DNA of 64,000 bases from Escherichia coli. Lineage in GTDB: Bacteria; Pseudomonadota; Gammaproteobacteria; Enterobacterales; Enterobacteriaceae. Under the pieces are notes generated by a model. It had not been told where the DNA came from. It ran no database searches and worked only from the letters and a program-made list of their open reading frames with translations. The stretch is from assembly GCF_044647545.1 (NCBI RefSeq), contig NZ_CP172818.1, one strand, 5' to 3'. Position numbers and translations under genes: made by a program. Each line of letters starts with the position of its first letter. The stretch's first letter is position 1. Of the stretch, positions 39,990-41,425 are shown piece by piece.

Positions 39990-40085
39990 ATATGCCCGAT
40001 GCGCAGGTTTATCGGGCATGAGTTTTGTGCACAAATTATTAATCACTTGTAGGTCGGGTAAGGCGTTCGCGCAGCATCCGGCAAA
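39990..40085. repeat. REP/BIME palindromic units downstream of efeB
   Basis: atgcccgat...atcgggcat inverted repeat and a REP unit tgtaggtcgggtaaggcgttcgcgcagcatccggca. Confidence 0.6.
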
Positions 40086-40145
40086 CACGAGGCACATTTT
40101 ACCAGCCCAGCGAATCCTGCTGAAAGCACACAGCTTTTTTCATCA

Positions 40146-40163
40146 CTGTCATCACTCTGTCAT
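40146..40163 (+). promoter_or_regulatory. Pho box (CTGTCAT-CACT-CTGTCAT) upstream of phoH
   Basis: Two 7-bp direct repeats separated by 4 bp, the PhoB binding-site architecture. Confidence 0.8.
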
Positions 40164-40312
40164 CTTTCCAGTAGAAACTAATGTCACTGAAATGGTGTTT
40201 TATAGTTAAATATAAGTGAATATATTGTTGCAATGAATGCGAGATCTGTTGTACTTATTAAGTAGCAGCGGAAGTTCCCGGCAGTGATAGTCAGTCACTA
40301 TGGAGATCGCGG

Positions 40313-40609
40313 ATGGTAACGTCCTGTTCTGGACAATGTTTTGTTAAGCAAGGCTCCACCACTCGCGGAGATTTCTCCTCCGGTAGCAACTTCGTCACTC
40401 TGTATTTTTCTCACTTCCTCTCTTTACTCGTGTTACCGACGCCGCAAACGGTGTGCGTAGCCGTTTTTCGGCATTTTATCCAAAAGCAAACTATGGCTTA
40501 CAAGGAAGCCAACCCTCTGATGTTCGTGCGCATAATCGCGCTGCCAACGGCGCGTGTGATGAATACAAACAACTCAAGGTGCTCTCCATGGGAAGACAAA
40601 AAGCAGTGA
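40313..40609 (+). other. Upstream ORF (98 codons) in the position of the phoH long-form N-terminus, out of frame with the PhoH core
   Basis: ATG 40313 frame terminates at 40609, overlapping the core frame; core frame has an in-frame TAG at 40384-40386. Confidence 0.5.
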
Positions 40610-41376
40610 TCAAAGCTCGTCGCGAGGCAAAACGTGTGCTGAGACGGGATTCGCGCAGCCATAAGCAGCGTGAAGAAGAATCGGTCACCTCGCTTGTGCA
40701 GATGAGCGGCGTAGAAGCCATTGGTATGGCCCGCGACAGTCGCGATACTTCGCCCATCCTCGCGCGAAATGAAGCGCAATTGCACTATCTGAAGGCTATT
40801 GAGAGTAAGCAGCTGATATTCGCCACGGGCGAAGCTGGGTGCGGAAAAACCTGGATCAGCGCAGCAAAAGCGGCAGAGGCCCTGATACATAAGGATGTCG
40901 ACAGGATTATCGTCACCCGTCCAGTTCTGCAAGCCGATGAAGATCTTGGCTTCTTACCTGGTGATATCGCAGAAAAGTTTGCTCCCTATTTTCGCCCGGT
41001 CTACGATGTGCTGGTCCGGCGCTTAGGGGCTTCCTTTATGCAGTACTGCCTGCGACCAGAAATAGGGAAGGTGGAAATTGCGCCGTTCGCCTATATGCGT
41101 GGACGTACCTTTGAAAATGCAGTCGTCATTCTTGACGAGGCGCAGAATGTGACTGCCGCGCAAATGAAAATGTTTTTAACCCGCCTCGGGGAGAACGTGA
41201 CGGTTATCGTCAACGGTGATATCACGCAATGCGATTTGCCTCGCGGCGTGTGCTCCGGATTAAGTGACGCGCTGGAACGTTTCGAAGAGGATGAAATGGT
41301 CGGGATCGTCCGATTCGGTAAAGAGGATTGCGTACGTTCGGCACTTTGCCAACGTACGCTACATGCATACAGTTAA
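40588..41376 (+). CDS. phoH: PhoH ATPase core (short form, 262 aa)
   Basis: ATG 40588 MGRQKAVIKARREAK...; Walker A GEAGCGKT; ORF track shows an upstream alternative start at 40453. Confidence 0.85.
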   Translation: MGRQKAVIKARREAKRVLRRDSRSHKQREEESVTSLVQMSGVEAIGMARDSRDTSPILARNEAQLHYLKAIESKQLIFATGEAGCGKTWISAAKAAEALIHKDVDRIIVTRPVLQADEDLGFLPGDIAEKFAPYFRPVYDVLVRRLGASFMQYCLRPEIGKVEIAPFAYMRGRTFENAVVILDEAQNVTAAQMKMFLTRLGENVTVIVNGDITQCDLPRGVCSGLSDALERFEEDEMVGIVRFGKEDCVRSALCQRTLHAYS

Positions 41377-41425
41377 GTGTATTATCGGCGCAGAGCCCGG
41401 GCGAACCGGGCTTTGTTTTGGGTGT

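Follow-up and report, generated by a model that had tools for sequence, protein, structure and literature searches.

The question raised by this locus is whether the phoH gene of an Escherichia coli genome has lost a protein isoform that strain K-12 can make, or whether the reading frame in front of PhoH is kept for a reason other than its peptide. The stretch of DNA analysed (the window; 64,000 nucleotides (nt) of contig NZ_CP172818.1, assembly GCF_044647545.1) carries an upstream ATG that opens a 98-codon open reading frame (ORF) and, in another frame, the ATG of the PhoH ATPase. A first-pass annotation, made from the letters of the window, had read this, provided that the long PhoH isoform of K-12 is real, as a 1-bp indel that abolishes it and leaves only the short one. 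In the window phoH has a split-frame layout, and we hold it probable, at roughly 0.6, that a translated, structured leader is selected for the transit of ribosomes and that its fusion to PhoH is incidental. The features at issue are given below.

40302-40305, plus strand: Shine-Dalgarno (SD) sequence of the leader ORF, GGAG, read from the sequence, 7 nt before the ATG at 40313.
40313-40609, plus strand: leader ORF of 98 codons (11.0 kDa, pI 9.6), in the +1 register relative to PhoH; its translation starts MVTSCSGQCFVKQ.
40384-40386, plus strand: in-frame TAG of the PhoH frame, which is open only from 40387 on.
40576-40581, plus strand: SD of PhoH, AAGGTG, 6 nt before the ATG at 40588.
40588-41376, plus strand: phoH coding sequence (CDS), 262 amino acids (aa), 29.3 kDa, with the Walker A motif GEAGCGKT.

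The two-frame arrangement itself was as the first-pass annotation had described it. The 98-codon frame ran from the ATG at 40313, which lies at -275 from the ATG at 40588, to a TGA at 40607-40609. This stop lies 22 nt beyond the A of the PhoH start codon. The PhoH frame, open from a GTG at 40453, carried the start at 40588 (MGRQKAVIKARREAK), ended at 41376 and contained the in-frame TAG at 40384. From 40313 to 41376 there were 1064 nt, which is 3x355 minus 1 and thus one nucleotide short of a multiple of three. The translation from 40588 contained the P-loop and matched NCBIfam NF007827 (PRK10536) with 511.6 bits against a cut-off of 380, model positions 1-253 falling on residues 9-261. In K-12 numbering, the same model covers residues 101-353 and the solved homologue 3b85 aligns to residues 152-352; the N-terminal extension stands outside the model. 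An NCBIfam scan of the 98-aa leader product returned no family.

In MG1655, phoH (b1020, NP_415539.1) reads without a break for 354 codons from the homologous ATG, and K-12 therefore does not share the two-frame arrangement of the window. The region 40100-41400 was 100% identical to that of E. coli FDAARGOS_497 and 96.8% identical to that of K-12. Pairwise alignment of the window with K-12 phoH revealed a single missing base, between 40409 and 40410, and the differences were distributed as follows.

40110-40327, plus strand: 218 nt with 3 differences from K-12.
40328-40454, plus strand: hypervariable patch of 127 nt, with 27 substitutions and 1 missing base compared with K-12 (22%), falling into two main E. 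coli haplotype classes.
40405-40410, plus strand: frameshift site, a run of five Ts (T5) followed directly by C, with one A missing between 40409 and 40410.
40455-40587, plus strand: 133 nt with 0 differences from K-12.
40588-41376, plus strand: phoH CDS, 789 nt with 11 differences from K-12, giving one S/G difference across the 262 aa.

All other Escherichia alleles read TTTT, then T or C, then A at the frameshift site, while the window reads TTTTT and then C (three alignments and the phase analysis). The proposed 1-bp indel is thus real, but its cause is the loss of the A that follows the T5 run and not a change in the length of the homopolymer; the run itself, which had been placed at 40403-40408, occupies 40405-40409. 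The patch at 40328-40454 was about 16 times as divergent as its flanks, and the adjoining 133 nt were identical to K-12. Its haplotypes were mosaics common to E. coli, E. whittamii, E. albertii and unnamed Escherichia lineages. Relaxed constraint alone provides no obvious explanation for such a large excess within one species, and one possibility is that old alleles have been exchanged by short-patch recombination.

The layout of the locus was compared across Enterobacteriaceae in 80 species representatives, the 80 closest PhoH loci (PhoH 92-100% identical). In 55 of the 80 species, the PhoH frame was open to an ATG at -270, -273, -276, -279 or -282, distances all divisible by three (fused layout). 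Since the fused frame occurs in 55 of 80 species, the long frame is not an accident of K-12. The other 25 species were out of frame (shifted layout) and comprised most Citrobacter, Salmonella, E. albertii, E. whittamii, the E. coli-like strain E69, Kluyvera, the Pseudescherichia group and one Enterobacter cloacae. For C. koseri only 149 nt of upstream sequence were present and the ATG was not locatable, leaving 24 shifted species; all of them had the same SD and ATG at -272, -275 or -278, always in the +1 register. Their ORF ended with a TGA at +22 in 19 and with a stop at -23 in 5, and the layout of the window, a start at -275 or -272 with a stop at +22, was found in Salmonella, Citrobacter, E. 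albertii and E. whittamii. The third register was used by none of the species surveyed. In the set of 79 species used to examine the upstream start, 54 were fused and 25 shifted. An assembly labelled Chryseobacterium sp. 18061 (CACSKA010000011.1) carried an Enterobacteriaceae phoH locus with 95% protein identity, nearly identical to that of Citrobacter sp. 18056 from the same study, which suggests that this assembly is mislabelled or contaminated.

The upstream start was conserved together with its frame. GGAGAT followed after 4-6 nt by ATG was present in 79 of 81 sequences, the other two having GGAGAC, and all 79 of 79 species kept the SD, the ATG and an open frame of 270-282 nt; the 98-codon frame of the window is therefore not a chance arrangement. 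Stops per frame between the two ATGs numbered 0, 2.65 and 7.31 in the fused species and 0.2, 4.48 and 3.8 in the shifted species. The frame fed by the upstream ATG had no internal stop in 79 of 79 species, whereas the other frames averaged 2.7-7.3. With a conserved SD and start codon, and a stop near the PhoH ATG (+22 in the window, as in 19 of 24 shifted species, and -23 in 5 of 24), the leader has the marks of an upstream ORF (uORF). Of the marks of an in-frame isoform pair, the window shows an internal ATG (40588) with an SD of its own, AAGGTG, that was invariant in 62 species; its upstream ATG is out of frame and its PhoH frame is closed by the TAG at 40384.

The leader did not evolve like protein-coding sequence. 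In the first 15 codons of PhoH, the entropies at codon positions 1, 2 and 3 were 0, 0.02 and 0.30, a classic coding signature. The corresponding values in the 56 fused sequences were 0.53, 0.44 and 0.44 from -100 to -1, and 1.02, 1.05 and 1.03 from -239 to -101. No codon periodicity was therefore seen in the leader, even in the species in which it is fused to PhoH; periodicity begins at the ATG at 40588. The leader shows no constraint at the amino-acid level. From -125 to the PhoH start, the +1 frame was stopped in 20 of 56 fused sequences versus 0 of 26 shifted ones, and the PhoH frame in 0 of 56 fused versus 7 of 26 shifted. As far as the PhoH start, the frame that the upstream ATG feeds stays open; the other one drifts. 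Taken together, the fed frame without internal stops, the reciprocal decay of the other frame and the absence of periodicity indicate that the continuity of the ORF is selected, not its peptide. An independent small gene from the ATG at 40493 (38 codons, MAYKEAN...) was considered and rejected, as its frame was stopped in 20 of 56 fused-frame sequences and it had neither an SD nor codon periodicity.

RNAalifold, applied to 20 and then to 62 species, predicted three hairpins in the leader (HA, HB and HC), and applied to alignment A4 it gave a further one at 40364-40383.

40364-40383, plus strand: hairpin C.CGGA / UCCGG with a variable 9-nt loop (RNAalifold on alignment A4; support weak to moderate).
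40440-40473, plus strand: hairpin HA, outer stem 40441-44 with 40469-72, inner stem 40450-52 with 40460-62.
40494-40511, plus strand: hairpin HB, UGGCUU-ACAAGG-AAGCCA, stem and loop nearly invariant in 62 species.
40537-40554, plus strand: hairpin HC, CGCGCUG-loop-CGGCGCG, the loop variable in sequence and length, with compensatory changes in the stem.

In the 62-species alignment, 94.8% of the cells were paired compared with 88.5% in shuffles, and cells with double changes numbered 118 compared with 42; 0 of 500 shuffles reached either observed value. When the partners were slid, pairing fell to 29-57%. HA and HC were backed by compensatory changes: pair 7:34 of HA was CG in 20 sequences, GC in 20, GU in 7 and AU in 3, and in HC pair 107:123 was CG in 32, UA in 15 and UG in 15, pair 109:121 CG in 43 and UA in 15, and pair 110:120 CG in 35, UG in 16 and UA in 6. 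HB hardly varies, and covariation is uninformative there either way. The hairpin at 40364-40383 had 94.7% of its cells paired with few double changes. The apparent conserved peptide motifs of the leader coincided with RNA stems, the 'RGG..SGS' motif being accounted for by the hairpin at 40364-40383. The T run at 40464-40468 forms the 3' linker of HA and is the site of an indel at -125 in other lineages. Single-sequence folding of 40440-40625 was no more stable than shuffles (z = -0.41), and the structural argument therefore rests on covariation only. In Rfam 15, no family matched 40100-41170 at E <= 1; the only matches lay outside the leader, an antisense one (Ysr251) in the 3' part of phoH and two sub-threshold ones upstream.

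The loop and flank of HB (UUACAAGGAAG, 40494-40511) resemble the high-affinity consensus of CsrA, RUACARGGAUGU, with GGA in a hairpin loop, and would be a candidate CsrA site. No paper linking phoH with CsrA binding was found in the literature searched.

From these observations we propose that ribosomes would travel from the ATG at 40313 to the PhoH start and that selection would act on this transit. Its reason may be translational coupling, with reinitiation at 40588 after termination at 40609; it may be that ribosomes melt leader structure around AAGGTG and the AUG; or a long leader may in this way be shielded from premature termination by Rho, or from RNases and decay. The window allele would accordingly yield an 11.0-kDa leader peptide of arbitrary sequence and a normal 29.3-kDa PhoH, and no 39.3-kDa form. 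Of the claim that only the short isoform is left, the short PhoH stands; what it passed over is that an intact 98-codon leader ORF with a strong SD remains as well.

The first alternative is that a functional isoform has been lost, the 354-aa PhoH being useful, its N-terminal 92 residues mattering, and the 98-codon ORF of the window being the unselected remnant of a lesion. It would fit the 55 of 80 species in which an in-frame ATG opens a fused frame, with lengths that differ only by multiples of three, the annotation of 354 aa in K-12, and the internal start, which implies two isoforms in K-12 (bioRxiv 10.1101/520783). Nevertheless, the extension is without codon periodicity even where it is fused, its conserved 'motifs' fall on covarying RNA stems, and both the NCBIfam PhoH model and the solved homologue leave it uncovered. 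Furthermore, Salmonella, Citrobacter and several Escherichia species are fixed for the split layout, and in them the SD, ATG and ORF are intact and the upstream PhoH frame decays; a dead remnant would show the opposite. We consider the loss of a useful isoform unlikely.

Somewhat less likely still is a purely untranslated leader, in which 40313-40587 would be only a structured 5' untranslated region, the upstream ATG unused, the 354-aa ORF of K-12 an annotation artefact and the open frames incidental. That both the NCBI annotation pipeline (PGAP) and NCBIfam ignore the extension is in keeping with this, as are the non-coding-like substitution pattern and the covarying hairpins. It does not account for the 270-282 nt that stay open behind a conserved SD and ATG in 79 of 79 species when the other frames hold 2.7-7.3 stops, for length changes confined to two of the three registers, or for the reciprocal accumulation of stops in the frame that the upstream ATG does not feed.

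Programmed -1 frameshifting or transcriptional slippage could in principle restore the long PhoH from an out-of-frame allele, as the leader and PhoH frames overlap at 40387-40609, where a -1 slip would give the fusion, and CCAAAAG (40480-86) has an A-AAG motif. By inspection, the leader frame holds no canonical X XXY YYZ heptamer, and the T runs measure no more than 5 nt. Moreover, other shifted species have stops in the PhoH frame at -18, -39 and -93, close to the ATG, and the fusion cannot be the selected product in them. Recoding was thus rejected as very improbable.

The frequency of the allele was determined by searching a 181-nt query (40290-40470) against 5,426 complete E. coli genomes. 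At least 99% identity to the window was found in 521 genomes and at least 95% in 1,963 of 5,415 (about 36%), and 22 of 22 sampled had the length of the window. Another 3,443 genomes matched at 80-90% identity (K-12 type), and 36 of 36 sampled were one base longer. Intermediate haplotypes were a handful only, one being the frame-intact strain PI6. An independent 81-nt query gave 2,006 window-type and 3,411 K-12-type genomes, and the ratio of fused to shifted in E. coli is thus about 63:36. Variation in the length of the T run at 40464-40468 was rejected as the main polymorphism, since nearly all of the 5,417 genomes matched the full 81-nt query. A sequencing or assembly error at a homopolymer can be dismissed: although the missing base adjoins a T5 run, it is the A after the run and not a T, and the allele is present, at one length in all those sampled, in genomes from many laboratories and platforms, so that reads would not restore the frame.

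The allele is not a private lesion, and the PhoH core has not decayed, being the same as in K-12-type strains. PGAP calls exactly 40588-41376 in the identical genome (WP_000533533.1), this identical PhoH occurs with both leader types, and in every genome listed only the 262-aa CDS from the equivalent of 40588 is annotated, the leader being left without annotation. E. coli T16R (NZ_CP142710.1) has a K-12-type leader with four Ts (T4) in place of T5 at the equivalent of 40464-40468, inside hairpin HA, as does E69. The -125 shift of Salmonella and Citrobacter lies at this very site, and the long frame is broken there independently; the T4 of T16R may be either a true recurrence or a sequencing error in the homopolymer. 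In the search with 40100-41400, 7 of the 5,490 matching places were on plasmid-typed records, and a few genomes had up to 4 places.

The phase analysis placed the shifts at no fewer than six different indel sites, all giving the same register.

Indel at -179 (window 40409/10): window type and Escherichia sp. E1V33.
Indel at -125 (window 40463, 3' linker of HA): E. albertii, E. whittamii, E69, Salmonella, and Citrobacter except C. amalonaticus S646 and C. koseri.
Indel at -108: Pseudescherichia group.
Indel at -99, an insertion of +2: Kluyvera.
Indel at -167: Citrobacter amalonaticus S646.
Indel at -168: Enterobacter cloacae M-7.

In a neighbour-joining tree of the PhoH core, the Salmonella/Escherichia/Citrobacter clade was uniformly shifted at -125, except for the E. 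coli-proper alleles and C. amalonaticus S646. On this gene tree, with midpoint rooting, the simplest reading would be that the shifted layout is ancestral for the clade and that the long frame of K-12 is a secondary fusion. The K-12-type fusion would have arisen when a T4 run became T5 at 40464-40468, and the window type would then have lost the frame again through a new deletion. Because the out-of-frame layout seems to be the older state in Escherichia, Salmonella and Citrobacter, the window allele without the long isoform is probably not a defect. What was said of an abolished isoform therefore holds as a description, the 354-codon frame of K-12 being broken here.

Several points weigh against the proposal of a translated leader with an incidental fusion. 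Translation of the leader ORF and its coupling to PhoH are what we infer from conservation alone. The fused frame is kept by 55 of 80 species, which may mean that the long protein is useful. Kim et al. reportedly described a 39-kDa product for K-12 phoH in the Journal of Bacteriology in 1993, and the long form is thus probably made in K-12. The reciprocal decay of the frames (Fisher p ~2e-4 each) is uncorrected for phylogeny, and as the species are related its significance is overstated. That the six shift events gave the same register reaches p ~0.03 only, and the one-register pattern could result from an indel bias or from a third frame stopped in conserved sequence. In the 5' half of the leader, including 40364-40383, covariation is weak, and the pairing proposed for the PhoH SD never varies and is hence beyond a test by covariation.

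Ribosome profiling of initiation by Meydan et al. (Ribo-RET) revealed an in-frame internal start in phoH, with raised conservation at synonymous sites nearby for which the authors gave no explanation (bioRxiv 10.1101/520783). This start was assumed to be the equivalent of the ATG at 40588. The leader hairpins would offer an explanation for the raised synonymous conservation. We tentatively extend the proposal, at somewhat less than even odds, to the whole family: the ~275-nt 'PhoH N-terminus' of K-12 may be a regulatory leader, a chain of hairpins that ribosomes must traverse for PhoH to be expressed, in which indels in unpaired linkers flip the ORF between the fused state and the uORF state, the 39-kDa isoform is a neutral by-product, and both states segregate in E. 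coli. What selection fixes would then be an unbroken ORF that ends near the PhoH start, not the peptide.

Compared with known systems, the locus of the window shares with K-12 phoH the Pho box, the upstream SD and ATG, the internal SD and ATG, the ATPase core and the identical 133 nt before the internal ATG. It differs in that the upstream ATG of K-12 is in frame, so that a 39.3-kDa long form and a short form are possible, whereas the window can give only the 262-aa protein and the 11-kDa leader product. Alternative-initiation pairs, such as the IF2 forms of infB, clpB and mcrB, likewise have two start codons in a single mRNA, the second of which yields the conserved core protein; in those, the frame is shared and the extension is a conserved protein segment, whereas the phoH extension is without amino-acid conservation and its frame switches between lineages. 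Translated leaders and uORFs, as in secM-secA and the scanning model of van Duin for termination and reinitiation, resemble the phoH leader in having their own SD, an end within ~23 nt of the downstream start, hairpins between, and selected continuity. Unlike them, the phoH ORF is unusually long (92-98 codons), has no evident conserved arrest or sensing peptide and is fused in most genera, and the dependence of PhoH on it is predicted from sequence. Single-base-indel polymorphisms that split or fuse genes similarly turn one long ORF into two overlapping ones by a 1-nt indel; in phoH, neither part decays, the split is stable across genera and the indels lie in unpaired linkers of a conserved RNA structure.

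Upstream of the leader, two elements bear on transcription.

40146-40163, plus strand: Pho box CTGTCATCACTCTGTCAT, the predicted PhoB site of a phosphate-regulated phoH promoter.
40228-40257, plus strand: promoter-like -35 TTGCAA, 18-nt spacer and -10 TACTTA, the hexamer regions conserved across genera.

The Pho box lies where it had been annotated and contains TGTCATCACTCTGTCATC, the PhoB site mapped upstream of K-12 phoH by chromatin immunoprecipitation sequencing (PMC10294691), a sequence identical to which spans 40147-40164; regulation of the window gene by phosphate is predicted on this identity. At 40228-40257, the blocks TGTTGCA and TG.TGTACTTA were conserved in 19 species (alignment A4), and this may be the second, PhoB-independent phoH promoter. 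The consensus match of the promoter tool lay elsewhere (TTTATA/16/TATATT, 40199-40226), and two promoter-like sites thus stand between the Pho box and the leader ATG, at 40199-40257. Presumably K-12 phoH has a PhoB-independent second promoter, and either 40199-40226 or 40228-40257 could be its site.

Around the leader SD, at 40300-40347, the SD region forms an ATG of its own (ATGGAG...) with a 15-codon ORF (MEIADGNVLFWTMFC), and other genera retain its first codons in the form MEIA(N/D)G, probably just because the SD and spacer are conserved. At the other end of the gene, on the minus strand at 41178-41371, Rfam Ysr251 (Yersinia small RNA 251, antisense type) matched over its full model length with 186.9 bits against a gathering threshold of 100, antisense to the 3' end of the phoH CDS. 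The efeB-phoH intergenic sequence upstream of ~40110 (window 40021-40115; columns 1-25 of alignment A2) was wholly different between E. coli strains. It includes a weak, sub-threshold match to naRNA4 (RNA derived from REP elements) at 40052-40088, and a terminator-like hairpin follows efeB at 39991-40020.

That the window strain is without the long frame of K-12 was already implicit in existing annotation. The 63:36 dimorphism of E. coli, a translated leader that toggles its register and the covarying hairpins were not described in the literature searched. In it, only the Ribo-RET preprint and the PhoB ChIP-seq paper had a bearing on the locus, and a paper on Salmonella HilD said nothing of start sites. 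PhoH is a core protein of the Pho regulon and a widely used marker gene. The discrepancy between the 354-aa annotation of K-12 and the 262-aa annotation given by the NCBI pipeline to other E. coli is explained, as the long form is possible only where the leader is in frame; about a third of E. coli, together with Salmonella and Citrobacter, cannot make it. Work on PhoH isoforms, N-terminal tags, knock-outs and reporter fusions therefore depends on the layout of the strain in use. The leader, with its hairpins and an ORF free of peptide constraint, would provide a testable route into the post-transcriptional control of phoH, and the long isoform of PhoH may exemplify a protein form that arises as the neutral by-product of a regulatory ORF.

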